A stretch of 64,000 bases of DNA from Ranitomeya imitator. Its lineage: Eukaryota. Positions 8,080-39,639 of this stretch are shown here, piece after piece; the first letter of the stretch is position 1, and the number at the start of each line of letters is the position of its first letter. Position numbers and translations under genes: made by a program. The notes beneath the pieces were generated by a model, which saw nothing but the letters and a program-made list of their open reading frames with translations, made no database searches and was not told the origin of the DNA. Location: assembly GCF_032444005.1 (NCBI RefSeq), contig NC_091285.1:413788001-413852000 (forward strand), read 5' to 3'.

Positions 8080-9345
8080 TTAAGACGGAATAATAACCGA
8101 TTTGTTTTACAGAGCAGTGGGGTGTAGGCTAAATAAATGGGATTTTTGGAAAGTGTTTATTTGGTATTGCAGCTTTATTCCAGTCACTTAAGCTTTAGTA
8201 AGAAGAGGTCCAGCACTTATACAAAGGGAAAACTAGTATGAAAGTGACTTTCAGGTGAACTGTTGTATATAAATATTAACTTTTCATGTGTTTTTTTTTT
8301 ACAGCATTATGATTTGTATTACAAAAATCTACACAAGAACGTCTATTTTGTTTTGTAGATGATTAACCATATAACCGGCCTGCACTGAGAATAACCGCAC
8401 TTACTGATTACACAGCCTTACACACTGTCAATTTGCACATATAGATGAATAACTGAAAGAAAACAGATGTCATACCTACACAAAATATAAAAACAGGAAC
8501 AAATGACTTCCATTACCAGTGTCTGGCAGTACTGTCTGCTTCTTAAACTGCACAGACTTTAAACAGTCTTTAAGAGTGTCCAATTTATCAGAGGCTGATG
8601 AGGTTTTAAGGCTGGCTATCCTATGTTGGCACCTCCTAGGACTTGGCTGGCTTGTTCCAGAGAAGTGAGGCACAATTTTGTTACTTTTTGTTGCCTGTCA
8701 AGTCATGTCCCTTTACAAGACAAGTGTCTAAACCACATATGGTGCAAGCCATAAGTTTGTTTTTCCCGTCTCCCATGACAGCACACCTGAGAGAGTGATC
8801 CGCCCAGTCAGGACAGGAAACCTACTGAAATAAAAGGGCGGTACCTCTCCCTCGCTTCAGTTGGGTTTCCTGTCCTGAACCCTTGTGCTGAAATCACGGC
8901 AGTATTGATTGAAGATCCACTTACCCACTCCTGTCCCGGCACTGGAAGCGCAGGCAGAGCGCCTGTATGTCGGCCTTCAGGAGATGATAGTGCGGTTCGC
9001 AGATCGTGCGGGCGTCGGTCCAGCACAGTCCGGACTCTTGAGGCCATTCTGTGTCTGCCACTCCGCTCTCTCCCCTCTGCTGGGCGACTTCTGGGCGCGC
9101 GGCTGACGTTGCGCGCAAGGCACGCTGGGAATGGGCGTGCCTGCGTGACGTCAGAGCGGCGCGCCGGATCCAAGATGGCGGCGCCCATGGAATGAACGCC
9201 GGAGGCATTACAGGCTTCCCAGCGGTGTACAGGAGGGGGAGAGGAGCGCAACGGATACCGGAAGAGGTGGGGAGCACTGAGGATGACCCTTTATTAAGGG
9301 TGAAGCTGCACAGAACGTCGCTCATTTCCATACAGCTTTCCAGAG

Positions 9346-10726
9346 ATGGAGGATCGTATGGAGCAGCAGCAAGAGCCCTTATCAGGTGATTCACCGGCTC
9401 ACCAACGTGCTAAGAATAGCCGCTCGAGTGGAAGGAGCGGCAATCGTCCTAGCCCGGACGTCACAGGACTCTTCAGCCTCCAGGAGGAATGTTCCCCGTG
9501 CTCCTAGTCCGCCTTGGAATCCGGCACCCTTTATGGTCAGCGGGCGGTGAGTGATCTACGTGAATGTCACTCTGGTGGTAATGGGCTACATTTTCTGTTA
9601 ACTTGGCAGGCGCCGAGGAAGGCTAGCTCCAAGTCTAAGAATAAGGAATGTGCCCTCTGTAGAGTTCCGTTGGCAGTCCAGTGGCAGAAGAGTCTTTGTA
9701 TAGATTGCATCCAAAAAACTATCCAGGAAGAGACCCCTGACATTGTCTCCCTGCTCCTCCTCCTCTAGGTCCTCTGGCTCCTCTTCAGATAGCGATGTTG
9801 GGGGCCGTCCGTGCTTTCTAACCGAGAACACGGACAAGCTAGTAAAAGCCGTCAGAGCTTCAATGGGCCTAAAATATGAAAAAGCGGCCAAATCCCTGGA
9901 GGACATTATGTTTGGGGGTCTAGAGGAAAAGAGAAAGCGTACCTTTCCAGTTAACCCCAAAGTAAAAGGCCTTATAGAAAAGGAATGGAGGAAGCCGGAG
10001 AAATCGGATAATCTACCCTTGGCTTCTAAAAGACGTTACCCCTTTGAGGAGAAAGATTCGGAGACTTGGGATAAGGTTCCAAAAATCGATGGTGCGGTAG
10101 CTATATCATCTAAAAAGTTATCCCTTCCCTTAGACTCTGGCGTGTTAAGGGATCCCTTAGACAAGAAAGCGGATGGATTCCTAAGACACACCTGGGAAGC
10201 GACCGCAGGGGGTTTAAAACTGGCAATCGCAGGGACCTGTGTCGTGCGTTCCCTTATTGTCTGGCTACAGCAGATAGAGGAGCAATTGAAATCTAAAGCT
10301 CCAAAGGATGAAATTTTAACTAATGTAACTATGGCTAAAGGAGCAGCAGCCTTTATAGCAGATTCTTCGGCAGACTCCGTAAGGCTGGCAGCTAGGGCAG
10401 CAAGTTTATCCAATGCGGCTAGACGTGCTCTCTGGTTGAAGAGGTGCCCGAGTGACTTACCTTCAAAGAATAGACTTTGTTCTATACCGTGTGATGGCCA
10501 TTTCCTCTTTGGTGAAAAATTATAAGACATTTTGGAGAAAGCAGGAGATAGGAAAAAGGGTTTTCCTCTCTTTCCAGTGGACTTTAGAAGACCTTATTTT
10601 CGGAGGGGCAAATTTAGTAGGGGCCGCACCCCGGGAGATAGAAGGAATTGGGACTCCAGAGACAGAAAGGGATCTGGATATATGTTTAAAGGTTCCTCGA
10701 CATCAGCGAAAAAGCCCTCCCAATGA
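9346..10726 (+). pseudogene. DIRS A gag (predicted exon 1 plus C2C2-finger exon), frameshifted
   Basis: CALCRVPLAVQWQKSLCIDC, then KLVKAVRASMG...RRALWLK...CSIPCDG. Internal TAA at 10523; natural stop TGA 10724-10726. Confidence 0.8.
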
Positions 10727-10732
10727 CGCCAG

Positions 10733-12626
10733 GCCAGAGGTGGGGGGAAGGCTTTCATCTTTTTTCCCAGCCTGGGTAAACATCTCCCCCAGTCATTGGA
10801 CTCTGAAGATTGTCAAAGACGGCCTAAAAATAGATTTTGTTTATCCACCGCGACAGACTTTTGTTTTAACACCCCAAAGAAAAACCCCGGAAGAGCAGCT
10901 AGCCTTGGAAGCAGAGGTATTGGAGCTGGTATCAAAACTAGTTCTGGTAGAAGTCCCGGGGGAAGAGCAGGGAAAAGGTTTTTATTCCCCTTTTTTTTTT
11001 TTTTTATATATACGAAAACCGGACTGGTCACTAAGAACCATTGTCAATTTAAGAAATCTCAACCAGTCGGTAGTAAACTGCTCCTTCAAGATGGAGTCTG
11101 TGAATACAGCGATAAAACTCTTGTTCCTACATTGCTTCATGGCAGCTATAGACTTAAAGGACGCCTACTACCATGTCCCAATCCATCGGGACTACCAGAA
11201 ATTTCTAAGAGTAGCAGTTTGTCCAAGGCTTTCTCAGGCACTATCAATACGCTGCCCTCCCATTCGGCCTGTCTATAGCGCCAAGAATATTTACCAAGCT
11301 AATGTCAGAGGTCATGTCCTTCCTCCGCTCTCGGAACGTGGTTATAGTCCCGTATCTAGACGACTTCCTTATAATAGGGAATTTAGCGGCACACTGCCTG
11401 GCACAAATAAAAAGTCACGGCAATGCTAGAGGTGTTGGGGTGGAAAATAAATCTCACCAAATCAAGGTTGACGCCGGAGCTAGTTCAGTCCTTTCTGGGC
11501 TTAGTTCTGGACTCCAGGAGTCAGCTTTGTCTCCTACTAGAAAACAAGCTGGTCAAGATTCAAAATCTTGTGGAATCTGCGATTCAACACCCCGTAATGA
11601 CATTGAGAAAGGCAATGTCCCTGTTGGGTTCTCTGATGTCCTGTATACCCGCAGTAAGATGGGCACAGTTCCATCTAAGACAGTTACAGTGGGAGGTCCT
11701 ATCAGCACAAAAGTGGTTAAAAGGGCATTTAGAGGGGAAGCTACGCCTTTCATTGGAGGTAAAAGATTCCCTAAAATGGTGGGCTGTAAGAGATCATTTG
11801 GCATCGGGGGTTCAGTGGATAACTCCGATAGAGCAGATCATCACCACAGACGCAAGTGGTACAGGATGGGGGGCTCATTTAGGGACTCTCTCAGTTCAGG
11901 GATCCTGGTCCCAACTAGAATCACAGCAGGCGTCAAATTTAAGAGAGTTATGGGCTGTAGAGAGAGCTGTAAAACATTTCCTTCCCATCCTTCAGGGTCA
12001 CCATACCAGAGTCATGTCAGACAATCATGCAGTGGTTGCGTATATCAACCACCAAGGGGGGACGAGATCCCCTTCCTGATGAAGTCAGCGTCTGTCCTCC
12101 TACAACTAGCAGAGCGCCACCTACTATCCCTCTCTGCTCTACACATAAAGGGAGTCGAGAATACGAAAGCGGACTACCTAAGTCGCAAGACACTGAGGCA
12201 GGGAGAGTGGTCATTGAATCCCGGGTGTTTCAACAGATAGTGCAAGCTTGGGGCTTACCTGTAATAGATTTATTTGACACTCTAAACAACAGGAAAGTAG
12301 AGCGTTTCTGTTCGTTAAACCCGAGAGAGAAACCTTTCGCGGTAGATGCTCTTCAAATTCAATGGAAATTCAGTCTCGCTTATGTGTTTCCACGGATAGC
12401 GATTATTCCGGCAGTGGTAAGAAAGATCAGAATGGAGCAGGCAAGAGTAATTTTGATTGCTCCATTTTGGCCAAAAAGACCTTGGTTTTCTCTCCTAATA
12501 CAGATGTCAGTAACCGATCCATGGATTCTGCCAGAAATTCCAGACCTGCTTACCCAGGGTCCAATATGCCACTCTCAAGTGAAGGGCTTCCATCTGGCAG
12601 CCTGGAATTTGAGAGGGCATTACTGA
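10733..12626 (+). pseudogene. DIRS A RT / RNase H / methyltransferase-like ORF, frameshifted
   Basis: VGGRL, FYSP, IDLKDAYYH, PYLDD, TTDAS, ELWAV, DN and IDLF...YVFP motifs across ORFs 10452, 11302, 11423 and 12027. Confidence 0.88.
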
Positions 12627-13626
12627 GTAGGCAGGGGTTTTCACCAGGGTTAGTCCTCCACCTTGTTAAAAAGTAGAAAACCAGTCACATCAAGAATATA
12701 TGGTAGAACATGGAAAAAGTTTCTGGATTTTTCGGGGCAACCTTTGGGGGACAAGGCTCCTGTAGGTACTATTTTAGAGTTTCTACAAGCGGGTTTACAA
12801 CTAGGGTTGGCAACTAATATGCTCAAAGTACAGGTGTCTGCATTAGGAGCCTTGTATAATTGTAATCTGGCCTCCGATAGGTGGGTGTTCCGTTTTATTA
12901 AATCTTGTAGTGGGTCTAGAACAGTGGTAATTCAAAGGGTTCCTCTGTGGGATTTGAATCTGGTGTTAGAAGCTCTAACTAGGGGTCCATTTGAACCTTT
13001 GCAGGAATCATCGATAAAAATACTCTTAAAACAGTGCTTCTGGTAGCGTTGACATCAGCCCCTAGGATGAGTGACTTGCAAGCTCTGTCCATCTCCCCTC
13101 CTTACACGCAAATATTTGATGACAAAGTAGTACTCAGACCAGATCCGGCATATCTGCCGAAGGTAGTACTTAAGTTCCATAGAAGTCAAGAAATTGTGTT
13201 ACCCTCTTTTTGTGATAATCCCAAGAACCCAGGGGAAGAGAAATTTCATACACTGGATGTAAGAAGAGCTATTTTGCAGTACATATCTTTGACTAGTCAG
13301 TGGAGGAAGGCTCAGTCCCTATTTGTAGCTTTCCAGGGTAGCAGGAAGGGATATGGGGTATCCAAGGGTACTATGGCTAGGTGGATTAGGGAGGCCATTT
13401 CCTTATCCTATGCTTCTCGTGGTGCCCCGATCCCTGAAGGCATCAAGGCTCACTCCACCAGAGCTGTGGCTACTTCCTGGGCGGAAAAAGCAGAGGTATC
13501 GATTGATCAAAGGCCGCTACCTGGTCCTCACCGTCTACCTTCTTTAGACACTACCGACTAGATCTATCCTCTTCAACTGACCTTACCTTTGGTAGAAGGG
13601 TGCTACAAGCGGTGGTCCCTCCCTAA
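12552..13626 (+). pseudogene. DIRS A tyrosine recombinase, disrupted
   Basis: ALTSAPRMSDLQAL, HTLDVRR and KAHSTRAVATSWA motifs; C-terminal VVPP*. Confidence 0.88.
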
Positions 13627-14326
13627 GGTGTTTCTTTCTCCAAAAAGCTCTCAGGTGTGCTGTCATGGGAGACAGGAAAACACCAAGGTTACTTACTGGT
13701 AGCCGGTTTTTCCGGAGCCCATGACAGCACCTGTATATTCCCTCCCTTCTTTTTTTAACCCTTTGGTGCACACTTTTAGCTGGGTGTTTTTTGTTATTAT
13801 TATGATGTGGTGGTAGATTGCCATGTATACTAACCAAGGGGGCCTCTCATGCTCTGAAAACCAACTGAAGCGAGGGAGAGGTACCGTCCTTTTATTTCAG
13901 TAGGTTTCCTGTCCCAACTGGGTGGATCTTTCTCAGGTGTGCTGTCGTGGTGGGTTACTAGAAACCGAATTAACGGTAAGAATAATTCTATTTTTTTGCC
14001 ACATTTAGTTTTATAAATATGCCTCAATGCTCTGTGGTATTATAGTGTCTATTCCATCGAGAGAAAGCGGCCATATTTTGTTTTTCCGTTAACAGACCAA
14101 CACTTAATTTTGTATGGAAACAGCTGGTTTGCTCAAAACAATGCAATATCCACATGGGTCTGAAGGTAACAGCGCCCTTTCTTCTACAAAATCACATTCA
14201 CCAACAATTAGCTACTGCATTTGCCGCCATTCCATGAGGCCTCATCCAAGGCATATTGTAGAATTCCTAGACATTTGACACATACGGTGCATGTACCACA
14301 CACAAGATATACAGCCATAATATTAA

Positions 14327-14442
14327 AGGGAACCTGTCACCCCCAAAATCGAAGGTGAGCTAAGCCCACCGGCATCAGGGGCTTATCTACAGCATTCTGG
14401 AATGCTGTAGATAAGCCCCCGATGTATCCTGAAAGATGAGAA
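14327..14442. mobile_element. Left part of a T2/Kolobok-like MITE split by DIRS B
   Basis: TTAA 14323-14326, then AGGGAACCTGTCA. The sequence is complementary to 31880-32007 and is interrupted at GATGAGAA. Confidence 0.85.
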
Positions 14443-14814
14443 TATCGTAGTTACTTACCGATAACGGTATTTCTCTGATCCCATGACTGCACCACGGAGA
14501 GAGAGGGATCCGCCCTCAGGGACAGGAAACCTACAGGTGAAAAAGGCGGTACCTCTCTCCCACATTAGTTGGTTTACAGAGCCTTAACAGAACTTCAGCT
14601 GTAACTTAAATGTTATCAAACAAAACTTTAATTTTAACTTATCAGAGGCACCGCGTGACTAAGTATCAAGACTAACACTAGTGTTCACACTCACACGTGA
14701 AGGGAGGGAATGTACGGGTGCCGTCAAGGGATCAGAGAAATACAGTTATCGGTAAGTAACTACGATATTCTCACCCCCATGACGGCACCACGGAGATAAT
14801 GTCATAGATGTATA

Positions 14815-17060
14815 TTAGGGAGGGACCACTGCCTCTAGAACCCTTCTGCCAAAGGTGAGGTCTGAAGAGGAAGTCAGGTCTAGTTGGTAGTGTTTAAAGA
14901 ATGTGGACGGAGACGACCAAGTGGCTGCCCTACATATCTGTTCAATTGATGCTCCTGCTCTCTCTGCCCAGGAGGTCGCCACCGATCTGGTTGAATGAGC
15001 TCTGACTTCCTCTGGAATGGCTTCATTACTTGACGGATACGAGAGGATGATGGCGTCCCTTATCCATCTTGCAAGTGTGGCTTTCGATGCTTTATGCCCT
15101 TTGTTTGGACCCTGAAAACACACAGAGACCTATCCTTCCTATAGTCCCTTATGGCCGCAAGATATTGGACTAAACATCTTTTAACATCTAGTGTGTGTAG
15201 ATGCTCCTCTTTCCTATTTCTGGGATTTGGACAGAAAGAGGGTAACGAGAGCTCCTGCGATCTATGGAAACGTGATGCCACTTTAGGAAGGTAGGATGGA
15301 TCAGTTTTAACCCCTTCAAGTCGCGGCCCTTTTTCGTTTTTGCGTTATCATTTTTCACTTCCCAGAGCCATAACTTTTTTATTTTTCCGTCAATATGGTC
15401 ATGTGAGGGCTTATTTTTTGCGGGACGAGTTGAACTTTTGAACGACACCATTGGTTTTACCATGTCTTTTACTAGAAAACGGGAAAAAAATTCCAAGTGC
15501 GGTGAAATTGCAAAAAAAAGTGCAATCCCACACTTGTTTTTTGTCTGGCTTTTTTGCTAGGTTCATTAAATGCTAAAACTAACCTGCCACTCTGATTCTC
15601 TAGGTCATTACGAGTTCATAGACATCTAACATGTCTAGGTTATTTTTTATCCAAGTGTTGAAAAAAAATTCAAAACTTTGCTTAAAAAAAAAAAAAAAAA
15701 AAGTGCCATTTTCCGAAACCCGAAGCGTCTCCATTTTTCATGATCTGGGGTCGGGTGAGGGCTTATTTTTTGCGTGCCGAGCTGACGTTTTTAATGATAC
15801 CATTTCGGTGCAGATACGTTCTTTTGATCGCCCGTTATTGCATTTTAATGCAATGTCACGGCGACCAAAAAAACGTAATTCTGGCGTTTCGGATTTTTTT
15901 TCTCGCTACGCTGTTTAGCGATCAGGTTAATGCTTTTTTTTTATTGATAGATCGGGCGATTCTGAACGCGGCGATACCAAATACGTGTAGGCTTTTTTTT
16001 TTTATTTAGGATGGGGCGAAACTTTTATATTTTTTTTCATATTTTTAAAAACATTTTTTTTTTTTTACTTGTGCCATGCTTCAATAGCCTTGATGGGAGG
16101 CTAGAAGCTGGCATTGCCTGATCGGCTCTGCTACATAGCAGCGATCATCAGATCGCTGCTATGTAGCTGAAATGCAGGTGTGCTGTGAGCGCCGACCACA
16201 GGGGGCGCTCACAGCAGGCCGGCATTAGTAACCATAGAGGTCTCAAGGACCTCTATGGTTACCTTCCTGATGTATTGCTGACCCCCGATCATGTGACGGG
16301 GGTCAGCGATGACATCATTTCCGGCCGCAAGCGCCGGTTAAATGTCGCTGTCTGAGTTTGACAGCGGCATTTAACAGGTTAATAGCGGCGGGTGGATAGC
16401 GATTTCACCCGCCGCTATTGCGCGCACATGTCAGCTGTACAAAACAGCTGCCATGTCGCGACTTTGATGTGGGCTCACCGCCGGAGCCCACATCAAAGGG
16501 GGTGACACGGCATGCGCAGTAATAGTACGGCGCATGTTGTGAAAGGGTTAAGGATTACTCTGTCATCTAGTATGCGTGTCAGCGGTGGATATGCTGATAG
16601 GGCCTGCATGTCACTAATACTCCGTGCTGACGTTAGTGCCGCAAGAAGGGAGGTTTTGAGCAATATTATTTTTTTAAGAGGCTTGGGACAGTGGCTCAAA
16701 AGGTGGTTTGGTTAGTGCGGAGAGAACTAGATTTAGGTCCCAGGGAGGTGTAGTATGGTGTACCACTGGTCTAGATCTGGTCAAGGCCTTAATGAATCTC
16801 TTTACCCAGCGGTTCCCCGCCAAGTCACAGTTGTAAAGGGCCCCCAGCGCTGCTGGACTTTAAGCGTGCTCGTTGCTAAGCCTTTTTCTAGTACCTTCTG
16901 AATTGGGATTTCCTCAGATAAACTGGCACCTGATACTGATAAAAATCTCTGCCAAACCTTTCCATACGCCCTAGTAGTCACTGGTTTTCTACTTAGCAGA
17001 AGAGTGGAGACTAGATTTGAAGAGAACCCTCTCTTGATTAGAAGCTTCCTTTCAAATTCC
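14815..17060 (-). pseudogene. DIRS B tyrosine recombinase, split by the TTAA insertion
   Basis: ILDDRVILKTDPSYLPKVA is restored across the insert; RAHSTRSVATSWA, TFFKHY, VVPP*. Confidence 0.85.
15311..16547. mobile_element. Non-autonomous piggyBac-like element inserted in the DIRS B YR gene
   Basis: TTAA duplicated at 15307-15310 and 16548-16551; CCC...GGG ends. Removing it restores the YR frame. Confidence 0.85.
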
Positions 17061-18443
17061 AAGCCGTCATATGCAAGTTCTTTACTTGCGGGTGATTTAC
17101 CGGCCCCTGATATAGCAGGTTCGGAATCTCTGGAAGGACCCAAGGGTATGTTAAAGACGTTATCCTTAGCCATGGAAACCATGCTCTCTTTTGCCAAAAA
17201 GGAGCTATCATGATGACTCTCGCTCCATCCTCCCTGATCTTTCTCAACACTAAAGGAATTGGAGGAAACACATAGGCTAGGTGAAATTCCATGGAATTGA
17301 AAAGGCATCTAGGGTCACTGGGTTCCCGCACGGGTATGTTGAACAAAAGGCCTGAGTCTTTCGGTTTTGGTTGTTCACAAATAAATCTATTTCTGGGAGA
17401 CCCCACAATTGTACTATGTTGTTGAAGACTGCCTGATTCAATTCCCACTCTCCCTGTTTGAGTTGTGTTCGGCTTAGAACATTTGCAGTATGATTTTCCG
17501 ACCCCTTGATGTGAAGGGCTGATAGTGACGACAGATTGGTCTCTGCTAATAATAGAATGGATTTTGTCACTTCCATCAGTGTACGAGATCTCGTGCCCCC
17601 CTGGTGATTTAAATAGGCTACCACCACCCTGTTGTCCGATAATATCCTCACGTGATGGGAGTGTAGGAAGTGGATGAGTGCATATTTTACTGCTAGGAGT
17701 TCTTTCATGTTTGAGGAACCCAGTTTTTCTTCCTCCGACCATGGCCCTTGAGCAATTTGTCTACATGAGCCCCCAAGGACTCGCGTCCGCAGTTAGGGTA
17801 CCGTCACACAGTAGCATTTTGATCGCTACGACGGCACGATCCGTGACGCTCCAGCATCGTAACAATATCGCTCCAGCGTCGTAGACTGCTGTCACACTTT
17901 GCAATGTACGACGCTGGAGCGATAATTTCATGACGTATGTGCGATGTAGAAGCCGTTGGTTACTATGCGCACATCGTATACAATATCGTGCACACCTTTG
18001 TTACACCATGCCACCACAGCGGGACACTAGACGACGAAAGAAAGTTTCAAACGATCTGCTACGACGTACGATTCTCAGCGGGATCCCTGATCGCAGGAGC
18101 GTGTCAGACACAGCGAGATCGCTGGAACGTCACGGATATATCGCTGGAACGTCACGGATCGTGCCGTCGTAGCGATCAAAATGCCACTGTGTGACGGTAC
18201 CATTAGGGTTATAGATGTTGGCCATACCCATGGAACACCCCAGGTTAGATTGTGTGCATCCACCCACCAAGCTAGGGAATGTATTGTTTGCAAGGAGATT
18301 AAGTGCTTTTCTAAATCCCCTTTTAGCATAGAATCTGCTTCTAAGATCTCCCACTGGAGGTCGCTGGTGTGACTCTGGGCCCATTGGACCACTGGAAGAC
18401 AGGCTGTCATCGATCCCAGTATGGACATCGCTTTTCGTAGAGT
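17038..18443 (-). pseudogene. DIRS B RNase H / MT region (RT core deleted)
   Basis: TLRKAMSILGS, LTADASPWG (restored across the MITE), ELLAV, SDN, IDLF, YVFPP. Confidence 0.8.
17796..18202. mobile_element. PIF/Harbinger-like MITE in DIRS B RNase H
   Basis: TIR of about 55 bp starting GGTACCGTCACACAGT. TTA duplicated at 17793-17795 and 18203-18205. Confidence 0.9.
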
Positions 18444-19020
18444 AGCCTTTTCCCTTAAATTTTTTATCGTCCCATCCTTTCTGATTTTTTGGGGGGCCTT
18501 CTACGCATGAATTTTCTGTTCCGAAAGGACAGTTTATATAATTGGGAACCCCAGAAAGGCTTTTTTCTTGTCCCCCGCTTTCTCCAGGATATCATGTAAG
18601 GTAGGGCTAAATAGAAACTCCCCGTTGCAGGGTATGGAACATAATTTGGCTTTCGTTTGTAGGTCCCCGGCTAGCATTTGAGCCATAAAGCCTGCCTTGC
18701 TGCATTTGAAAAGGAAGCAGCTCTTGCCGCCAGTCTCACAGAGTCTATAGATGCGTCTGCTAGGAACCCAGGTGCTCCTTTCATTATTAAGATTGAATCT
18801 AATACCGATTCTCTCAGAGATCTATCTTTTAGTTGTGATCGTAAATGATCTAACTACACCATTAATGCTCTGGCGGTACATGTGGCGGCCATAGCTGCCT
18901 TTAGTTCCCACACCCCCCCCCCCCCCCCCTCAGCAGCATCCCAACAACCTTTTAGAAATACTTCAGCCTTCTTATTCATAGGGTCCTTTAGGGTCCCCAT
19001 ATCTTCAAAAGGTAAAGAAA
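18444..19020 (-). pseudogene. DIRS B gag, 3' part (5' part at 29805-30437)
   Basis: DVATAKASKKFSLPFEDMG reads continuously when DIRS C is removed. Confidence 0.8.
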
Positions 19021-19400
19021 CACCGGATTACGTACCGGTAATGCTCTTTTATAGAGCCAGGACAGCACCCACTTGAGAGAGGGGATCCGCCCCTAGGAAC
19101 AGGAAATCCTATGGAGAGAATAAAAGGGGCGGTCCCCCTCGCTCCCACAGTTGGGTTACAGAGATTGCGAGGAACCGCCCACCAGATTTTAGTAGGTCAT
19201 TCAATATTATCATTTATTAGTTAACTTAAGTATGGCTAACTACAAGAACCAAACACCCTTAACCGTGCTCCTAAATAAAAAACCTATAAGGGTGGGAAGT
19301 GAAGGTGCTGTCGTGGCTCTATAAAAGAGCATTACCGGTACGTAATCCGGTGTTTTCTCTTCGCCACGACAGCACCCACTTGAGAGACTTTCAGAGATAG

Positions 19401-20430
19401 TCATTTGGGAGGGATCACCGTGTTAAGAACTGATCTACCGAAGGACAAGTCAGATGAGGAAGACAAGTCAAATCTATAGTGATTATAGAAGGTAGTAGGA
19501 GAAGACCAGGTTGCGGCCTTACATATCAGTTCTTTTGGAACCTCCGCTCGTTCAGCCCAGGATGATGCTATCGCCCGGGTGGAATGTGCTTTTACGGTCT
19601 CAGGCGGATTCTCCCTTTTGGACGAATAGGCCAGACATATTGCATCTCGAATCCACCGAGATAAAGTACCCTTCGTGATTCCAGCTCCTTTTCTATGACC
19701 CTGGAAGGAAACAAAGAGAGCCCTGCTCTTCCTCCAGGCACTAGTCCTATCTAAATAGGCTATTATGGCTCTCCTCACATCTAATGTGTGGTATTTTTGT
19801 TCTTCCTGATTTGTAGGGTTATCATAGAAGGAAGGAAAATTTCTTGCGATCTGTGAAATTTAGTGCATGCTTTGGGTAAGTATGAAGGGTCTGTCTTTAG
19901 GACAACTATCTGGGAATATTGACATAAAGGGAGGATCTATCGATAGGTCCTGTATGTCACTTACTCTTTTCGCTGATACTAAGGCGACAAGAAGAGCTGT
20001 CTTGAGGGAGACATGTTTTATGTGAGCTGAATGTAGTGGCTCAAAAGGATGGTCTGTTAGAGCTTCAAGTACTAAATTAACATCCCAAGGTGGTACGTGG
20101 GGAATTTGAACTGTCTCTGACCTCTGGCATGCTGCAACAAACCTGGCTACCCATTTGTTACCTGCAATATCGTGACCATATAAAGCACCAAGCGCAGAAA
20201 TGTGTACTTTTAAGGTACTGACCGCCAGACCTAAATCGCGCCCTTTTTGAAGAAATTCTAAAACCATAGGAATATGAATTTCATTTGACAGGGCCGTCGG
20301 GTAGAGGTTTAGAAATTTTTTCCACACTCTTACATAGATGGAGGTAGTGGATTTCTTTCTACTTAACAGCAGAGTGTCAATCACTTTGTTTGAAAAACCT
20401 CTCATCTTTAGCAGCTGCCTCTCAAATTCC
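19401..20430 (-). pseudogene. DIRS C tyrosine recombinase, frameshifted
   Basis: SAKRVSDIQDL, KAHSTRAIASSWA, TWSSPTTFYNHY, VIPPK*. Confidence 0.88.
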
Positions 20431-22544
20431 AGGCTGTTAACCGTAGACCCTTCACATGAGGGTGGTTGAAGGGGCCCTGGAAAAGAAGATCCTGATCCTC
20501 CGGGAGGATCCATGGGTCCGAGATTGACATGGCTCTGAGCCAGAAAAACCATGGCCTCTTGGGCCAGAACGGAGCTATTAAGATCACGTTTGCTCTGTCC
20601 TCCCTTATCTTCCTGATAACTGTTGGAAGTAGTATCAACGGGGGAAAGGCATAAGCTTTCTGGAATACCCATGGCACTTGTAGGACGTCGAAGATATCTG
20701 GATTGTCGGATCGGAACAATGAAGCGAACGTTTTGACTTGCCTGTTGTGTCTTGTTGCAAAAAGGTCTATCTCGGGAGTGCCCCATTTTTTTACTATCAT
20801 GAAAAAGATACGACGACTTACAACCCATTCTCCTTGGTGGAGGGTGTGGCGACTGAGGAAATCTGCCTTCGAATTGTCGATTCCTCTCACATGCAGTGCT
20901 GATAGGGATAGAAGGTGCTCCTCTGCTATGGCTAGAATGTTGTCGGCTATAGACATGAGAGCTTCTGATCTTGTTCCCCCTTGGTGGTTTATATATGCAA
21001 CTGCTGTCATGTTGTCTGAAAGGATTCTTGTATGCGTTCCGTGTAGCTGCAGAAGGAATTTAGATAAGGCATGATAGATAGCTTTCAGCTCTTTTTTATT
21101 AGAAGAATCATCCGATTCCCTAAGAGACCTCAGACCTTGCACTATTTGATCTCCTAAGTGTGCTCCCCAACCACTAGGACTGGCATCAGTGAAAATAGTT
21201 TTTGAAGGTTTAACCACCCAGGGAACCCCACTGGTAAAATTATTCGGATCTAACCACCAGGTGAGAGATTGTAACACGTCTGTTGGTAAAGAAACAAGAC
21301 TATCTAACCAGCCCTGTAATCTTTCTTCCTCCTGAAGTATTGTATACTGTAATTTTCTACTATAGAATTGGGCCCACGGAACAGCTGGAATACATGATGT
21401 GAAGGAACCAAGAGGAGACATACCTTCTCTTAGGGAAATTAGGGGGTTGTTAATCATCGATTGTACCTTGTTTATAATTGCTATTTGTTTAGACTTGGGA
21501 AGAATGCACCTTTGATTTATAGAATCAAGAATAAGTCCTAGAAATTTTTGATGGGTTGTGGGGGACAATCTAGATTTTTCCCAGTTTACTAACCACCCTA
21601 ATTCCTGTAGGGACGAAATTGAATCAAATGAACGTTGATGACATTGAGAAAGGGAGTTCCCCACTATCAAAAAGTCATCTAAATATGGTATTATGAGGGT
21701 GTCTTAACCTCAAATATAACATTACCTCTGACATTAGTTTTGTGAAGACTCTAGGGGCTATTGATAGTCCAAAGGGCATTGCTGTATATTGATAATGCCG
21801 TATTTGACCTTTCATCATAACTGCCACCCGTAGATATTGTTGATGCTCAATGAAGATTGGAAGATGGTAATATGCATCTTTAAGGTCAAGAACTGCCATG
21901 AAGCAATGGGGAAACAGAAGCTTAGTAGTTGACCGAATAGATTCCATTTTAAAAGTTTGGTTCTCTAAGAAGACGTTTAGTCTCCTAAGGTTAATTATTG
22001 TTCTAAATGATCCGTCTGGTTTCGAAATCAAAAATAAAGGGGAATAAAAACCCCTTCCTTTTTTACGAAAAGGGACTTCCACTAATACTCCTTTGGACAG
22101 GAGAGTTATTATTTCCTGCTGTAAGGCCTCTTGTTGTGATTGAGACCTTAAGTAAGTCAATAAAAATGAGTCTGGAGGGACTTGGGTAAATTTTAATTTC
22201 AGACCCGTAGTTATAAGGCTAGTTGCCCATGGATTAGAAGTTGACAGCCATTGTGTAGAGAAGGACAACCTACCACTAACGGGTAGATCTGTCCTAACGG
22301 GGTTTATCCTCAGGTTTGAAAGGGCGTTTTCCGAAAAAAGCTCCTTTTTGTTTAAAGTCTTTATTAGCCCAACGGTCCTGGTTTTTATAGTCTCGTCTTC
22401 TGTTAAACATGGGCTTTCGGAACGCTCTCCTATAGGATGGAAGATAAGTGTTATTGGGGAACCCCTTCTTCCTCTCACCCGCTTTGGTAACAATTTCATC
22501 CAACTTAGTACCAAATAGGTACTCACCCTGGCATGGCAGACCAC
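20408..22544 (-). pseudogene. DIRS C RT / RNase H / MT, one frameshift near 21675
   Basis: ORFs 21675-22544 (FYSPLF, LDLKDAYYH, PFGLSIAPRVF) and 20408-21670 (FTDAS, ELKA, SDN, IDLFA, YAFPP). Confidence 0.9.
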
Positions 22545-23073
22545 ATAACTTAGACTTCGTTTGGGGATCTCCTTTCCACCCCTTTAGCCACAGGGCGCGG
22601 CGAGCCGCATTGGTCAGACCTGCTGATTTGGCTGCTAATCGTATAGAATCAGCTGAAGAATCCGCTAAAAAGGCAGTAGCTCCTCTAATCAATGGTATGG
22701 AAGACATGAGTTTATTCCGGGAAAGGCCACCTTTCAATCCTTCTTCTAAATCATTCAACCAGACTAGCATGGACCTAGCAGTGCATGTAGCCGAAATAGC
22801 CGGTCTGAAAGCTCCTGTACAGGACTCCCATGCTCTTTTTAGAAGGGAATCAGCTTTCCGGTCAAGCGGGTCTTGCAAAGATCCCGACTTCTACAGGCAG
22901 TAAAGATTTCCTAGAAGTGGATGCCACTGCCGCATCTACCTTCGGGGCTTTTGACCATTTGGAGAAATCCTAGTCATCAAAGGGATAGTGTCTTTTTGAC
23001 GAAGACTGCAACCCTCTTTGTCCCTGGCTTTCCCACTCTTTTTTGACTAAATCCTTTATTGCTGGAATAACAG
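22294..23073 (-). pseudogene. DIRS C gag, 3' part (5' part at 28530-29214)
   Basis: DPLDRKAD...RRALWLKGWKGD...CGLPCQG. RKRPSFPVIP is restored when D is removed. Confidence 0.85.
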
Positions 23074-23467
23074 GAAAAAGTGTAGTTACTCACCGATAAC
23101 GGTGTTTCTCAGAGCCCATGACCGCACTACCAGAGAGAGGGGATCCGCCCTTCAGGGACAGGAAACCTACAGGATAAAAGGGCGGTACCTCTCCCCTGCA
23201 TCAGTTTTGTTTACAGAGCATCGGAGGTCCTCCAGGTTAGTCACAACAACACAAAAAATGTGCAATTTATTCATAATGCTTAACAGTGAACACCGTGTCT
23301 ATATGTAAAAACCACTTCACACAATAATGTGCTCACCGCACACGTGATGAGGGGGGGAATAAGCAGGTGCTGTCATGGGCTCTGAGAAACACCGTTATCG
23401 GTGAGTAACTACACTTTTCTCAGTCGCCCATGACAGCACTACCAGAGAGAATTACAGAGATCATTGC

Positions 23468-26368
23468 TTAGGGAGGGACCACAGCCTGCAGAACCCTTCT
23501 CCCGAAGGTTAGGTCAGACGAAGAGGCTAGGTCTAAGCGGTAGTGTCTGAAGAAGGTTGAAGGTGATGACCAGGTGGCCGCCTTACAGATCTGATCTAAT
23601 GGTACCTCTGACCTTTCGGCCCAGGAGGTCGCCATAGCCCTTGTAGAATGTGTCTTCAGTCCTTGCGGAATGGCGTTCCCGGAGGATGAGTACGCCAAAG
23701 CTATTGCGTCTGTGACCCATCGAGCTATAGTGCCCTTAGAGGCTTTGAGTCCTTTCCTGGGTCCCTGGAAGCAGATAAAAAGAGACCCTTCCTTCCTATA
23801 CTGCTGGGTGATTTTTATGTATTGGACCAGGCACCTTTTAACGTCTAGTGTATTGAATTTCTCTTCCTTCTTATTTTTAGGGTTTTGACAGAAAGAAGGA
23901 AGGATTATCTCTTGGGATCTATGGAATGTTGACGCAACTTTCGGTAGATAGGAAGGGTCTGTTTTTAATATAACTTTATCATCCAGAATTTGTGTAAATG
24001 GAGGGTTAACGGACAGGGCTTGGAGGTCACTTATCCTACGGGCCGAAGTCAGGGCTATTAGGAGGGCCGTTTTAAGAGAAAGAATTTTAAGGGGTACCGA
24101 TTCTATGGACTCAAACGGGGAGTCTGTTAAGGCTGACAGAACTAAGTTCAGATCCCAGGTTGGTAATCTACTTATAGTTAGCGGTTTAGACCTTGCGGCT
24201 GCTCTGATAAACCGTATAACCCAAGGGTTGGCTGCTATGTTCTCACAGTATAAAGCTCCTAGAGCTGCTATCTGTACCTTTAAGGTACTTACCGAAAGGC
24301 CTAAGTCCTTCTGTAGAAATTCTAGTATTTCAGATACTGGAACACCATCTTGCAATTTTACCCCAGAGGAGGACAAAATTTTTTTCCATGTTTTGCCGTA
24401 TATTTTTGTGGTCACAGGTTTTCTACTTTTCATTAGTGTAGACACTAGCTTGTCAGAAAACCCTCTTTCCCTCAATAGTGACCTCTCAAAAGCCACGCTG
24501 TCAGATGGAGATTTTCTGATTGAGGGTGGAACACCGGTCCCTGAGACAAGAGGTCCGGAAGATCCGGAAGCACCCAAGGATCGGTGATTGATAACATCCT
24601 CAGCCATGAAAACCAGGCTCTCTTGGGCCAGAAGGGGGCTATCAAGATGAGTCTGGATTTGTCCTGTCTGATCTTTCTCAGAACTGCTGGAATGAGAATA
24701 GTAGGGGGAAATGCATACATTAGGGTCTGTGTCCAGGGTATTGTGAATGCATCCACAGCCTGAGGATTCCCCCTGGGATCTAGGGAACAGAAAGTTTCCA
24801 CTTTCTTGTTGTGCATATTGGCAAAGAGGTCTATTACAGGGATCCCCCATAGATCTGTGATTTTGTTGAATATGCCCTGATTTAGAGACCACTCCCCCTG
24901 CTTTAGTAGGGTACGACTCAGAAAGTCCGCTTTTTGGTTTTCCACCCCCTTTATATGTAGGGCTGATAGGGACAGGAAGTTGTTTTGTACCAGGCTGAAA
25001 ATTTCGGAGGTAGTTTCCATTAGTGATTGAGACCTGGTTCCCCCCTGGTGGTTTAAGTAAGCTACTACTACTTTGTTGTCCGAGAATACTCGGACATGAT
25101 GGCCTTGTAGTTGGTCTAGGAAGTACAGTAGTGCATGATTCACGGCTCTCAACTCTTTTTGATTTGAGGAAGATCTGAGCTCCTGATTTGTCCATATCCC
25201 CTGAGTGACTCTGTCGTCTAGGTGAGCCCCCCACCCTGTGGGACTTGCGTCTGTGGTAACTATCTGAGACCCCTCTATTACCCAGGGAATCCCTTTTGAT
25301 AAGTTGTTGGGATTCAGCCACCAGCCTAGGGAATGAATAGTGGGTAAACTTAGAGTCATTCGACTTTCTAACCGTCCTCCCAGTATTTTTTGGTTGCTTA
25401 AAATATCCCACTGAAGTGTCCTTGTGTGGAGCTGTGCCCACTGAACGGCTGGGAGACAGGCAGAGAGGGACCCCAGTAATGACATTGCCTTTCTTAGAGT
25501 CATGGTAGGGTTTGCACGCGCTTGTGACACTAGGCGGATTATGTTTTGTTTTTTCTTGTCTGGTAGGTAACAAACCTGAGAACTTGAGTCCAAGGTGAGA
25601 CCCAAGAATTCTTGAACCTTGGTTGGTTCCAGTTTTGATTTTTTGAGGTTCACCAGCCATCCCAATTTTGTTAGGGTGTCTATGACTCTGTCGCATTGTT
25701 GACGGCAGAGTTCGGCCGAGTTGCTCACAATCAGAAAATCGTCTAGATATGGAATAATCAAGACGTCTTCCTCTCTCAGATGTGCCATCATCTCCGCTAT
25801 CAACTTTGTGAAGATGCGGGGAGCAATTGATATGCCAAAGGGAAGAGCCCTGTATTGGTATTCCCTGGTCTGTCCTTTTATGACTACTGCCAGTCTGAGG
25901 AATTTCTGAGAGGTCTTGTGGATGGGGACGTGATAATATGCGTCGCTGAGATCTAGAACTATCATAAAACAGTTGGGAAACAGATTTTTTATCGTTGATT
26001 TTATTGACTCCATTTTGAATCTGTAGTTTTTTACATAGGTATTCAACTTCCGTAAGTTTATTATAGTTCGGAAGGTTCCGTCCGGTTTGGGAACCAGGAA
26101 CAATGGAGAGTAGAATCCCTTCCCTCTTTCCAGAGGGGGGACTTCTTGGATGACAGACTTGTTTACTAGTTTTACAATTTCTAGTTCCAGAGCTTCTTGT
26201 TGATGAGGAGATGATCTCAGCGGTGTTATCACATAATTCCGTGGGGGTAGGGATAGAAATTCTATGCGAAGCCCTTCTCCTATTAATTTCAATATCCAAG
26301 GGCTGGTCGAAATTTTCTCCCAGGCCGGGAGGAATTGAGTCAATCTCCCTCCCACCCTGGGGAAGACG
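23468..26368 (-). CDS. DIRS D long ORF with C-terminal tyrosine recombinase; N-terminal about 630 codons overlap RT
   Basis: Open from the TGA at 26371-26369 to 23468. SARRISDL, KTHSTRAMATSWA and TWSSPSTFFRHY give an R/HxxR/W/Y catalytic set. Confidence 0.9.
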   Translation of the reverse strand, partial: RLPQGGREIDSIPPGLGENFDQPLDIEINRRRASHRISIPTPTELCDNTAEIISSSTRSSGTRNCKTSKQVCHPRSPPSGKREGILLSIVPGSQTGRNLPNYNKLTEVEYLCKKLQIQNGVNKINDKKSVSQLFYDSSRSQRRILSRPHPQDLSEIPQTGSSHKRTDQGIPIQGSSLWHINCSPHLHKVDSGDDGTSERGRRLDYSISRRFSDCEQLGRTLPSTMRQSHRHPNKIGMAGEPQKIKTGTNQGSRILGSHLGLKFSGLLPTRQEKTKHNPPSVTSACKPYHDSKKGNVITGVPLCLSPSRSVGTAPHKDTSVGYFKQPKNTGRTVRKSNDSKFTHYSFPRLVAESQQLIKRDSLGNRGVSDSYHRRKSHRVGGSPRRQSHSGDMDKSGAQIFLKSKRVESRESCTTVLPRPTTRPSCPSILGQQSSSSLLKPPGGNQVSITNGNYLRNFQPGTKQLPVPISPTYKGGGKPKSGLSESYPTKAGGVVSKSGHIQQNHRSMGDPCNRPLCQYAQQESGNFLFPRSQGESSGCGCIHNTLDTDPNVCISPYYSHSSSSEKDQTGQIQTHLDSPLLAQESLVFMAEDVINHRSLGASGSSGPLVSGTGVPPSIRKSPSDSVAFERSLLRERGFSDKLVSTLMKSRKPVTTKIYGKTWKKILSSSGVKLQDGVPVSEILEFLQKDLGLSVSTLKVQIAALGALYCENIAANPWVIRFIRAAARSKPLTISRLPTWDLNLVLSALTDSPFESIESVPLKILSLKTALLIALTSARRISDLQALSVNPPFTQILDDKVILKTDPSYLPKVASTFHRSQEIILPSFCQNPKNKKEEKFNTLDVKRCLVQYIKITQQYRKEGSLFICFQGPRKGLKASKGTIARWVTDAIALAYSSSGNAIPQGLKTHSTRAMATSWAERSEVPLDQICKAATWSSPSTFFRHYRLDLASSSDLTFGRRVLQAVVPP
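24472..26355 (-). CDS. DIRS D RT / RNase H / methyltransferase-like polyprotein (627 aa, no ATG before the RT core)
   Basis: Uninterrupted ORF with LDLSDAYYH, PFG, YLDD, TTDAS, ELRA, SDN, IDLFA, YAFPP. Confidence 0.93.
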   Translation of the reverse strand: MGGRLTQFLPAWEKISTSPWILKLIGEGLRIEFLSLPPRNYVITPLRSSPHQQEALELEIVKLVNKSVIQEVPPLERGKGFYSPLFLVPKPDGTFRTIINLRKLNTYVKNYRFKMESIKSTIKNLFPNCFMIVLDLSDAYYHVPIHKTSQKFLRLAVVIKGQTREYQYRALPFGISIAPRIFTKLIAEMMAHLREEDVLIIPYLDDFLIVSNSAELCRQQCDRVIDTLTKLGWLVNLKKSKLEPTKVQEFLGLTLDSSSQVCYLPDKKKQNIIRLVSQARANPTMTLRKAMSLLGSLSACLPAVQWAQLHTRTLQWDILSNQKILGGRLESRMTLSLPTIHSLGWWLNPNNLSKGIPWVIEGSQIVTTDASPTGWGAHLDDRVTQGIWTNQELRSSSNQKELRAVNHALLYFLDQLQGHHVRVFSDNKVVVAYLNHQGGTRSQSLMETTSEIFSLVQNNFLSLSALHIKGVENQKADFLSRTLLKQGEWSLNQGIFNKITDLWGIPVIDLFANMHNKKVETFCSLDPRGNPQAVDAFTIPWTQTLMYAFPPTILIPAVLRKIRQDKSRLILIAPFWPKRAWFSWLRMLSITDPWVLPDLPDLLSQGPVFHPQSENLHLTAWLLRGHY

Positions 26369-27614
26369 TCACTTGGGGGGGGGGGGGGGGGGTTCTATCT
26401 CGAGGGGAGTTACCAAAAAGGAAACCTCTGTCTTTCCTTCTCCCGTCATCCCATCGGTTTTGCTCCCTCGGTGGTCTCCTTCTAAAAAATTTTCTGTTCC
26501 GAAAGGGCCGTTTATTATATGTTGGGGCCAGGATGGGAAAACCTTTCTTTTTATCACCTGCTTTTTGCAGGATATCGTCCAAAGTCTCTCCAAAGAGGAA
26601 TTTACCTTCACAGGGGATAGAACACAGTTTGTGTTTAGTTTGTAAATCCCCCGGCCAGCTTTTTAACCATAGGGTTCTACGTGCCGCATTTGAGAGAGCT
26701 GCCGATTTAGATGTTAATTTAATGGAGTCGGCCGAAGAGTCTGCCAAGAATGCTGCGGCTCCTCTAATCATAGGGATGGAGTCTAAAATTTTATTCCTAG
26801 GGACCCCATCTCTAATCTGTTTCTCTAAGTTGTCGACCCAAATCATTAAGGAACGCGACGTACATGCCGCTGCTATAGTTGGCCTTAAGCATCCTCCGGC
26901 TGACTCCCAGGCCCCTTTAAGAAAGGTATCTGCTCTTTTGTCAAGGGGGTCTTTCAAGGTTCCCATATCCTCGAATGGTAATGCGAACTTTTTCGAGGCC
27001 TTAGCTACCGCAACATCGAGTTTGGGGGCTTTATCCCACGAAACCGAAGCTTCTTCTTCAAAGGGGTATTTCCTTTTAATAGAGGGAACCGATGCATTTT
27101 TTCTCTCAGGTTTCTCCCACTCCTTCTTAATTAACGTTTGAATATTTTCATTAAGAGGAAATACCTTACGCTTTTTTTGGGAAAGACCACCAAACATAAT
27201 GTCTTGTACCGTTTTATCAGGACGAGGATCTAACACCCCCATCGTCGATCTTACAGCCTTTACAAGGCCGTCAACCTCATCTAGGGGGAAGCAATGACGA
27301 CCCCCACTTTCACTGTCTGAAGAGGAGGGGGATGAATCTTGCGTATCCGAATTTTTACTCTCGGAGCTAGAAGAGTCGGAATTTCTATCAGGAGCTGATT
27401 TCTTAGTAGATCTCCTGTCGCTTTTAAGGGAGTTAAACACCGTCTCAACCTCCGCTTTAATTACAGAGCGTAACTCAGAGGCGAAGTTCGGGGTCTCCTC
27501 ACAGAGGACTCGCTCAATACAGGAGTCGCATAATTTCTTCTCCCAGGACTGTGGTAATGCTTTCTCACATAAGGGGCATGTTCTATTTTTCATCTTCCCC
27601 GTTCTCTTCCTTGC
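26340..27614 (-). CDS. DIRS D gag main exon (C2C2 zinc finger at N-terminus)
   Basis: 417-aa ORF with CPLC-x12-CDSC. Preceded by a TAG acceptor (AG at 27616-27615). An 18-G run at 26375-26392 shifts the last codons. Confidence 0.85.
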   Translation of the reverse strand, partial: ARKRTGKMKNRTCPLCEKALPQSWEKKLCDSCIERVLCEETPNFASELRSVIKAEVETVFNSLKSDRRSTKKSAPDRNSDSSSSESKNSDTQDSSPSSSDSESGGRHCFPLDEVDGLVKAVRSTMGVLDPRPDKTVQDIMFGGLSQKKRKVFPLNENIQTLIKKEWEKPERKNASVPSIKRKYPFEEEASVSWDKAPKLDVAVAKASKKFALPFEDMGTLKDPLDKRADTFLKGAWESAGGCLRPTIAAACTSRSLMIWVDNLEKQIRDGVPRNKILDSIPMIRGAAAFLADSSADSIKLTSKSAALSNAARRTLWLKSWPGDLQTKHKLCSIPCEGKFLFGETLDDILQKAGDKKKGFPILAPTYNKRPFRNRKFFRRRPPREQNRWDDGRRKDRGFLFGNSPRDRTPPPPPQVTSSPGWEGD

Positions 27615-27699
27615 CTAAGATAAGGGAGAAGGGGAACCCCAATTACAAAAAATGAGCTTTCACGAAGATCACTCACCAATCTGACGCAGCCACAGGTAC

Positions 27700-27912
27700 C
27701 GGTTCTGGAGGAGGGGTAGGATCCTGAGGCGTATGATCCGTGGCCGGCCGCAGGTTTACCGCACTGGAACTACATGGTGTGGAATGGCTACTGGATCGGG
27801 AACTTCGGTTGCTTGCAGAAGTTCTCTTCCCCTGGGCATCCGGTTTCTGGCGCTGACGATGGCGCTGCTGCTGCTGCGGTGGCGGCTGGAGCTGCTGATC
27901 GCTGTCTTCCAT
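27700..27912 (-). CDS. Predicted DIRS D gag exon 1 (MEDSDQQ...PPPEP, 71 aa)
   Basis: ATG-initiated Ser/Pro/Arg-rich ORF. The phase-0 donor CCG|GTACCT joins in frame to the main exon; similar exons exist in A and C. Confidence 0.55.
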
Positions 27913-30900: not shown

Positions 30901-31588
30901 GTGAGCCTTTTCCCAGAGCACCAGCCACTCTGTTTTCTGCTTTCTTTTATGCATAAGCGGGACGGCACACCGCTGGATCCATTACCCAGAGATGCCGTGC
31001 GCCGCCCCTGAAGTGACCCCTGCGACAAGCATTCTGGGACTACCAGAATGCTTTGCAGTCGGTACGCGTGTGCGCTCATTCTCCGGCGTCCTCGCTTCCT
31101 GAAGGGAGCATGGCCATCACCCGCCTCCAGACCACGCCGAAGGAGACCACCACCGCACCCGACCAGCCTCAGCCCTGGGTTTACAGGCGCACAGCGGAGG
31201 AAGCGCCGCTCCATGACGCCCAGCAGGAGAACCGACGATAAGACACCAGGTGACCGCCATCACCTATTACCGGCTACTAGCTTTTTTTTATAGGGAGAAG
31301 CAGACTGGATCTTTCTTCTCTGCTTCTCCCCCGCTCACACACAAGGCCCACGACCCTGGGATCGTGGCCTTTGGGGAGGGATATCCACCGTGTCCAAAGC
31401 AGGGCCCCCCACTGCCAGTAATCGCACCGATGGACCCCCGGCATCCCACGACGAATATGCTGCAGGTTCCCAGTCAGGGACAGGAAACCGAACTGATGTG
31501 GGAGAGAGGTACCGCCTTTTTCACCTGTAGGTGTCTTGTCCCTGAGGGAGGATCACTCTCTCTCTCCATGGTGCCGTCATGGGGGTAA

Positions 31589-32007
31589 GAGAAAAAGAGG
31601 TTAGATTATACTCACCTAGGGGCGGTCCCGTTCGATGGGCGTCCTCTTCTTGCCTTCATGCTCCGGCAGAGCAAAGTACTGAAGTGCACAGGCGCCGGAA
31701 AAGGTCAGAGGCCTGACGCCTGCACACTGCAGTACTTTGCTCTGCCCTCAACAGGGCACACAAAGTACGCCTGCGCAGGAGCCGTGGCAGGAAGACAAGA
31801 ATAGCACATCATCCTATGAATATGGGAGGCCCTGACTGCGACGCCCATTGGACTGCACCGCCCTCCCATGTGAGTATAATCTAACCTCTTTTTCTCATCT
31901 TTCAGGATACATCGGGGGCTTATCTACAGCATTACAGAATGCTGTAGATAAGCCCCTGATGCCGGTGGGCTTAGCTCGCCTTCGATTTTGGGGATGACAG
32001 GTTCCCT
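31589..32007. mobile_element. Remainder of the T2/Kolobok-like MITE split by DIRS B
   Basis: Resumes GAGAAAAAGAGGTTAG and ends TGACAGGTTCCCT. Confidence 0.85.
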
Positions 32008-39512: not shown

Positions 39513-39589
39513 CTAAAGATGACCGCCAGTCTATCCAGAAACAGTGTAGGGTCAGACGATATACCATTATTAGGATCCTGTGAGAGAAG
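39513..39589 (-). CDS. TNPO3: Transportin-3 exon (77 nt)
   Basis: [25 protein letters not shown]; AG/GT ends. Confidence 0.95.
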
Positions 39590-39639
39590 CTGAGTAAAAT
39601 GAGCAGAAAATCAGAAAATGCACTCTATATTCACACACC

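Follow-up and report, generated by a model that had tools for sequence, protein, structure and literature searches.

Structure of the nested elements

The window, by which we mean the whole stretch of 64,000 nucleotides analysed, contains DIRS1-like tyrosine-recombinase retrotransposons nested within one another and comes from a genome of 6 Gb. Four DIRS1-like copies are considered here, three of which (A, D and E) belong to class I and one (C) to class III of the junction classes described below. ITRs and an ICR were both found in A, D and E, in agreement with a DIRS1-like identity, and each of the three codes for a gag of the LAP2alpha type, for RT/RNase H and for a recombinase. Copy A (8761 to 13934, forward strand; ITR arms 8791-8869 and 13856-13934, ICR 13648-13730) is decayed, with a LAP2alpha match for gag, a weak RVT_1 match and broken ORFs. 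Copy E (41848 to 47878, reverse strand) is young and intact, with 100% identical ITRs, an ICR, many identical copies in the genome and Pfam matches to LAP2alpha, RVT_1, RT_RNaseH and Phage_integrase. Copy D (23076 to 28529, reverse strand) is also young, carries the ITRs and ICR and has near-identical genomic copies; its ORF3 gives no Pfam match at an E of 0.01, yet the same motifs are visible in it. D was inserted into copy C, a decayed class III element (19057 to 29793, reverse strand; ITR pair 19057-19157 and 29693-29793, 97% identical) that it splits, and the gag of C runs on across D, with its 5' part at 28530-29215 and the remainder below 23076. The translations past RNase H contain DLFA and YAFPP motifs, in a region without a Pfam match for a methyltransferase; these may be methyltransferase (MT) motifs.

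Several other features were noted in the window. A 119-nt inverted pair (97% identical; 14324-14442 and 31892-32010) encloses the whole DIRS nest at 14447-31594, and it resembles a MITE into which several DIRS would have inserted one within another. Positions 39570-40300 are a simple tandem repeat with a strong negative GC skew. The window copy of D has a C-run indel directly before its gag stop, and C-runs at this place (26375-26392 in D; also L183 and L184) differ in length between copies and often align the gag and RT frames; this variation could be mutation or long-read error.

Three classes of gag-RT junction

A pattern for the start of RT matched 9,585 sites genome-wide, against 26 with the reversed control. 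From this list we sampled the first 30 sites and 60 of the next 70 (10 apparent duplicates being passed over), together with 90 family-selected loci, 20 further loci and 25 relatives of A, with locus labels from L001 upward. An intact tail was present at 120 of 180 anchors, which fell into 32 families at 85% identity. Positions are given as W+n, where n is counted in codons from the Trp (W) of the WLK that is conserved in gag.

Class I comprises 17 families, including those of A, D and E, in which RT is read in +1 and the frame of gag extends into an ORF3 that is almost stop-free across pol. In class II (five families, none in the window) RT is in frame behind a gag stop that reads CAA UGA CU(A/G)G in all five, and ORF3 is closed. 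In class III (10 families, including that of C) RT is in the +1 frame, the gag stop is UAA or UAG in nine families and ORF3 is closed; in these labels three decayed class I copies and one class II row are counted in their own classes and not in class III, despite the stop-density threshold. The +1 position of RT relative to gag that was given in the preliminary description is thus correct in the sequence. In an RT tree (FastTree, midpoint root) class I is basal and paraphyletic and classes II and III each form one nested clade, and therefore each loss of a signal counts as one event.

The 5' gag intron

Donor 27699 of D, formerly proposed as the donor of a spliced pol, is the phase-0 donor of an intron of about 80 nt that joins a short ATG exon to gag. 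This intron lies at 27615 to 27699 on the reverse strand (donors 27699 and 27676, acceptor AG 27616-27615, exon 1 ATG 27912-27910), and the gene models P0024, P0040 and P0068 of related families use the same type of join. By homology, the corresponding intron of A would occupy 9524 to 9609 on the forward strand (GC donor D1 at 9524, strong donor D2 at 9547, acceptor AG 9608-9609), and the consensus places one at 46718 to 46804 on the reverse strand in E, ahead of the gag ATG (46713-46711). A second and stronger donor, D2 (G/GTRAGT), is found 18-26 nt past the in-frame gag donor in all classes (27676 in D, 9547 in A and 29025 in C in the window); the gag acceptor follows it at a distance of only 53-70 nt, or 43 nt in one copy, and the phase of D2 varies between 0, 1 and 2. 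No intron-less genomic copy was found among 200 loci.

Contigs from four runs, whose RNA origin was assumed or unspecified, were compared with E and with the class III copy L135. Among the joints listed (15 of 26 for E, four of four for L135) there was no splice, the 5' gag intron that served as a control included. Contigs in three runs cross 45532 unspliced, in the same set that showed no splice of the control intron. One contig stops at 46717 and another begins at L135:2528; each position is a predicted branch point, and the coincidence may be due to chance. In the recombinase region L135:4608-5600 the contig depth is 10-100 times that of the remainder, and three runs contain a joint leading back by 126 nt (4813 to 4688); the excess is possibly a recombinase-derived tandem repeat, a non-autonomous element or a circle.

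A conserved UUU_CGN in the gag tail of class I

All 17 class I families contain an in-frame UUU_CGN in the gag tail (16/16 when the indel-shifted L105 is left out), which lies between W+51 and W+64 in 15 of them and only at W+86 in L173. The motif is kept beyond what the amino acids would need: 24 of 35 Phe-Arg dicodons in class I are spelled UUU_CGN (6.9 expected), against none of 16 in class III (2.7 expected), where Phe-Arg itself is retained, and the TTTCG of the tail is in frame 0 in 24 of 25 cases. Class II families lack it at W+51 to W+64, and three of them have one at W+88/89. In the nine intact class I copies no +1 stop is found beyond W+48 and the first UUU_CGN follows at W+54 to W+59, so that the +1 ORF begins with a UUU_CGN in the zero frame, as at the PA-X shift site.

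In the window, the predicted shift sites are UAU_UUU_CGG at W+55 in A (10598 to 10603, forward strand; same motif in 11/11 tail-intact copies of the family), CCC_UUU_CGG at W+55 in D (26499 to 26504, reverse strand; 13/13 tail-intact copies) and a region with three in-frame UUU_CGN at W+59, W+61 and W+64 in E (45400 to 45420, reverse strand; motif in 31/31 copies). The codon before the motif, which would occupy the E site, is UCC in several families and CCC, CCU, UAU or UUU in others. The RT/RNase H/MT frame of E (43329 to 45551, reverse strand) has no ATG until 44861; the late first ATG of the RT frame, already remarked on in the preliminary description, is placed 111-117 codons past the VGGRL start, and no conserved RT ATG was found among the classes examined. 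A +1 frameshift, which that description had named as the alternative to splicing, is strongly supported, with UUU_CGN at W+54 to W+64 as the predicted site.

Another splice, from D2 to an acceptor near W+52 or before VGGRL, or internal initiation, could instead supply the RT of class I, UUU_CGN being kept for some other purpose. The conservation of D2 in all classes, for a use that is unexplained, speaks for such a splice, as do in-phase acceptors in L132/L169/L170 and L134/L138; six of 18 class I representatives have an acceptor scoring at least 3.8 between W+48 and the RT start, and in L132/L169 the phase of the second 5' donor matches that of the tail acceptor. However, in representatives of the D and E families no acceptor of this interval, whatever its phase, exceeds a score of 0, D2 occurs in all three phases, there is no conserved ATG, and the young D-sister copies L195/L196 have no AG before VGGRL, which makes this explanation unlikely. 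An acceptor directly before VGGRL with a UGAC branch point was considered and rejected, its AG being missing in several families and its phases mixed.

The gag stop and ORF3

ORF3 begins at the gag stop, without a conserved ATG. Behind the UGA of the nine intact class I copies the ORF has 968-974 codons (849 in one) and overlaps pol over about 640 codons. The gag stop of class I is UGA in 16 of 17 families and UGA-C in 14, compared with UGA-C in none of the 10 class III families and, as a control, UGA in 6 of 34 recombinase stops; a gag UGA goes together with an open frame behind it, and where that frame is closed the stop is mostly another codon. A UGA-C with a long in-frame ORF downstream is the arrangement of type II readthrough. 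The predicted readthrough sites of the window are CAA UGA C in A (10721 to 10727, forward strand), with ORF3 in frame behind, UGA-C in D (26368 to 26371, reverse strand) and CAA UGA C in E (45234 to 45240, reverse strand). ORF3 has 966 codons in D (23468 to 26368, reverse strand), with the recombinase at its C-terminus and the first Met about 230 codons in, and 974 codons in E (42310 to 45234, reverse strand), with the phage-integrase domain at residues 779-951. RNA structure 3' of the gag stop gave mean z values of -1.15 in class I, -1.08 in class II and -0.07 in class III, with -1.10 in a class I control window. The AUG within CAAUGAC, considered as a reinitiation codon, was rejected because it is in the wrong frame and absent in D.

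From these motifs and frames, class I elements of the A/D/E type probably use a double recoding, a +1 shift at UUU_CGN together with readthrough of the gag UGA. One mRNA would yield Gag, Gag-Pol by the predicted +1 frameshift about 40-60 codons before the gag stop, and Gag-ORF3-recombinase by the predicted readthrough. Both events would take place at low rates (about 1% for PA-X). What is observed is that the motifs and frames exist, that they are conserved and that two derived clades have lost them. The long overlap of pol and ORF3 would be explained because readthrough would need a stop-free bridge to the recombinase. In class II a UGA-CUAG/CUGG is followed by RT in the gag frame and the shift motif is gone from the position where it usually stands. 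Class III has lost both signals, its Gag-Pol being likely made by removal of a gag-tail intron of 94-106 nt and 3n+1 length.

It is distinctly less likely that all classes obtain the recombinase by splicing or from an internal start and that the 5' part of ORF3 is open for another reason. An acceptor in RNase H is indeed found in class I L109, L193 and L196, and the last 200 codons or so of the ORF3/pol overlap are open in all classes; but intact class I copies have no stop in about 600 codons from the UGA onward, against 10-35 in classes II and III, and D, E and several other class I elements have no AG at the RNase H position.

Distant DIRS elements

Among 80 metagenome loci with 34-41% RT identity, 59 have RT in +1 behind a long upstream ORF, and 48 remained after dereplication. 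Their gag stops are UGA in 35, UAG in 12 and UAA in one; UGA-C is found at 25 of the 48, against one of 27 recombinase stops. In 46 of 48 the gag stop is directly followed by ORF3, which in 29 reaches the recombinase after 960-1,027 codons. A codon of the type NUU or NCC precedes the gag stop in 20 of 48, against a background of 13%. In the 28 elements with ordinary stops, UUU_CGN is present in the open RT frame in 15 (1.35 expected) and absent in 13, compared with one of the 20 that have NUU/NCC before the stop (Fisher p 5e-4), this "shifty stop" group having been defined after the data were seen. UUU_CGN and the shifty stop are nearly mutually exclusive and therefore fit two alternative sites of +1 frameshifting. 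Three further distant elements (L215, L229 and L252) have RT in the -1 frame, with slippery heptamers instead, and in L212, L221 and L228 gag and RT share one frame.

A +1 shift at the gag stop itself, of the antizyme type, probably applies to the distant shifty-stop group. That it also serves class I, UGA-C acting in the shift and not in readthrough, is very doubtful: UGA-C is conserved and NUU/NCC is enriched at distant stops as described, but the frog class I stops follow codons of the CAA/CAG/AAG type, unable to re-pair in +1, UUU_CGN lies upstream, and an in-frame ORF3 of 970 codons would be left without explanation. Extending the double recoding beyond frogs, we consider it reasonably likely that DIRS1-like elements across eukaryotes would make three proteins from one gag start by two recodings (a +1 shift, placed either at UUU_CGN or at a shifty stop, plus readthrough from gag into the recombinase ORF), and that this scheme was rewired twice in frogs: in one case a one-base change directed readthrough to RT, and in the other a 3n+1 intron arose where the shift site had been.

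The open +1 frame over the gag tail

In A, the +1 frame is stop-free over the gag tail from 10440 to 10726 (forward strand). The RT-frame start sites of the preliminary description are correct for A (10440), C (22583) and E (45551), and so are the positions of the motifs that it had read as acceptors and donors (in E a branch-like A at 45552 and AAG at 45534-45533, in D AAG at 26607-26606, in C CAG at 22529-22528; donors 46804 and 27699). The open frame of about 100 codons also exists, and it mostly reflects amino-acid make-up and not an acceptor signal. The tail is rich in Arg, Lys and Pro and offers only 1-5 codon pairs per family able to form a +1 stop (a few more in one decayed copy), and few +1 stops occur there because of this. 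The codon-shuffle comparison that had been suggested was run on the 32 families and gave a divided answer: 307 +1 stops were seen in the gag body against 292-298 expected, and 10 from W+34 to the gag stop against 12.8-14.3, which is no clear deficit; a modest one appears from W+20 (28 seen, 40-44 expected, P 0.03-0.008) and from W+49 (two seen, 8-9 expected, P 0.017-0.006, with a boundary picked after viewing the data).

In 20 of 32 families the commonest pattern within the family has +1 stops (W+29, W+33 or W+46-48) downstream of the proposed acceptor at about W+20. The same holds for seven of the nine fully intact class I copies, and 16 of the 17 other parsed copies of the A family (18 of 25 loci could be parsed, one being A itself) have a +1 stop at W+29 or W+33. 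The length of the open frame in A is thus an accident of this copy, which has a premature gag TAA (10523 to 10525, forward strand) at the codon pair where its relatives have the +1 stop. The proposed AGs score 2.5 in E, 0.8 in D and -1.7 in C, whereas the scores of 37 acceptors of gag introns run from 2.2 to 13.8 with a median of 8.6; the phases of the proposed AGs differ, and the CAG 22529-22528 of C is the exon side of a conserved donor. These named acceptors are not functional signals. A foamy-style Pol, made in A, D and E from an mRNA in which the 5' donor is spliced to an acceptor some 20 codons past WLK, would agree with the AGs and the pyrimidine run in E and D, the phase agreement of the AAG of D with donor 27699 and the modest +1 stop deficit, but with +1 stops behind the acceptor in intact relatives, weak scores, mixed phases, donor 27699 belonging to the short gag intron and no such join in the class I gene models inspected, it is highly improbable.

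The predicted gag-tail intron of class III

All 10 class III families have a donor GG/GTGAGT at W+21, followed by a branch point, a pyrimidine tract and a YAG at about W+52. The donor is present in 52 of 54 class III copies and in none of 109 class I copies, an in-phase acceptor in 49 of 54, and the predicted intron is of 3n+1 length (94, 97, 100 or 106 nt) in 47 of 52. Its removal would shift gag into the RT frame, and the stops at W+29/33 lie inside it. In C, the predicted intron of 97 nt (3n+1) occupies 22430 to 22526 on the reverse strand, ahead of a gag stop UAG (22294 to 22296, reverse strand) behind which the in-frame ORF is closed, and the same junction is found in P0027, a gene model of the family of C.

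A protein search made after the junction had been derived gave 59 matches, among which 17 gene models, from three frog species and all with a class III RT, have the exact junction (16 found by pattern and one by eye), and the annotated proteins nearest to the elements carry poison-frog labels; these gene models are automated and may include Ranitomeya imitator itself. Class I gene models start inside RT or read gag and RT as one frame. Given the conserved intron and the gene-model junctions, spliced pol is likely in the clade of C, which would make Gag-Pol by excising the gag-tail intron. The earlier idea of a spliced pol with an acceptor within gag thus survives for this clade, at other sites than those proposed, with a donor that itself lies in gag, an acceptor roughly 32 codons downstream of the proposed one and a predicted product in which Pol is fused to Gag and not made separately. 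Host-like exons are joined to the class III tail acceptor or to the gag acceptor in P0073, P0046, P0057, P0059 and P0071, which suggests that these acceptors capture host transcripts.

The recombinase of classes II and III is probably reached by a splice to an acceptor in RNase H. A pyrimidine-CAG in the phase of the recombinase is present there in all 12 class II rows and in most class III rows, but not in the L153/L165 family; the candidate in C lies at 21047 to 21058 on the reverse strand, and class II has a phase-1 G/GTA donor in the gag tail in 12 of 16 copies. This splice is less secure than that of the gag tail because its scores are moderate and the acceptor also occurs in the class I families noted above.

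Comparison with known systems

The question addressed here is how DIRS elements make an RT and a recombinase that have no start of their own, and why a double reading frame of 2 kb persists. If the proposed scheme is true, a PA-X-type shift would be present in thousands of copies within the nuclear genome of a vertebrate, extending this motif from viruses to chromosomal mobile elements; a frameshift would have been replaced naturally by a frame-changing intron; and frameshifting, readthrough and splicing would substitute for one another within one family. No DIRS double-recoding design was found in the literature searched, with Goodwin and Poulter 2001 and Poulter and Butler 2015 (both of which may discuss frameshifting), supplements and Repbase outside this search; the word "DIRS" is absent from the first 300,000 of the 449,034 characters of the Atkins 2016 review.

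The published systems are compared here from excerpts of their descriptions. The elements of the window share ITRs, ICR, LAP2alpha-type gag, RT/RH/MT and recombinase with described DIRS1-like elements, about half of which have the long pol/recombinase overlap (PMC3266345; Xenopus families, 10.1101/2021.08.05.455354). The excerpts of these two papers give no mechanism for the expression of RT and recombinase, whereas we propose three alternative schemes here and link the overlap to a gag stop of the leaky type.

In influenza PA-X, UCC_UUU_CGU gives a +1 shift of about 1% (PMC3498833), and UUU_CGN was proposed as the +1 shift motif of amalgaviruses (PMC5052127). Class I shares with both a UUU_CGN that lies in the zero frame where the +1 ORF begins and is more conserved than the amino acids alone would require, and, as in amalgaviruses, the predicted shift would make a polymerase fusion (PMC5052127). 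It differs from PA-X (PMC3498833) in that the host of the motif is a cellular retrotransposon, the E-site codon is often CCC, CCU or UAU and not UCC, and the shift is predicted from sequence. Known readthrough contexts include UGA-C (type II, UGA-CUA/CGG) and UAG-G (type III), and the UGA-C or UAG-G stop followed by a long in-frame ORF is shared with them, but the predicted readthrough ORF of class I is a recombinase that is reached across the whole pol overlap (PMC3159437).

Foamy viruses make Pol as a separate precursor from a spliced mRNA (PMC3196705). In A, D and E we did not find a conserved gag acceptor with a stop-free pol frame, nor did the classes examined show a separate Pol with its own start, there being no conserved RT ATG and the class III junction giving Gag-Pol. 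Class III resembles foamy viruses (PMC3196705) in that its pol is likely reached through an acceptor within gag, with the difference that its donor also lies inside gag and that its predicted product is Gag-Pol.
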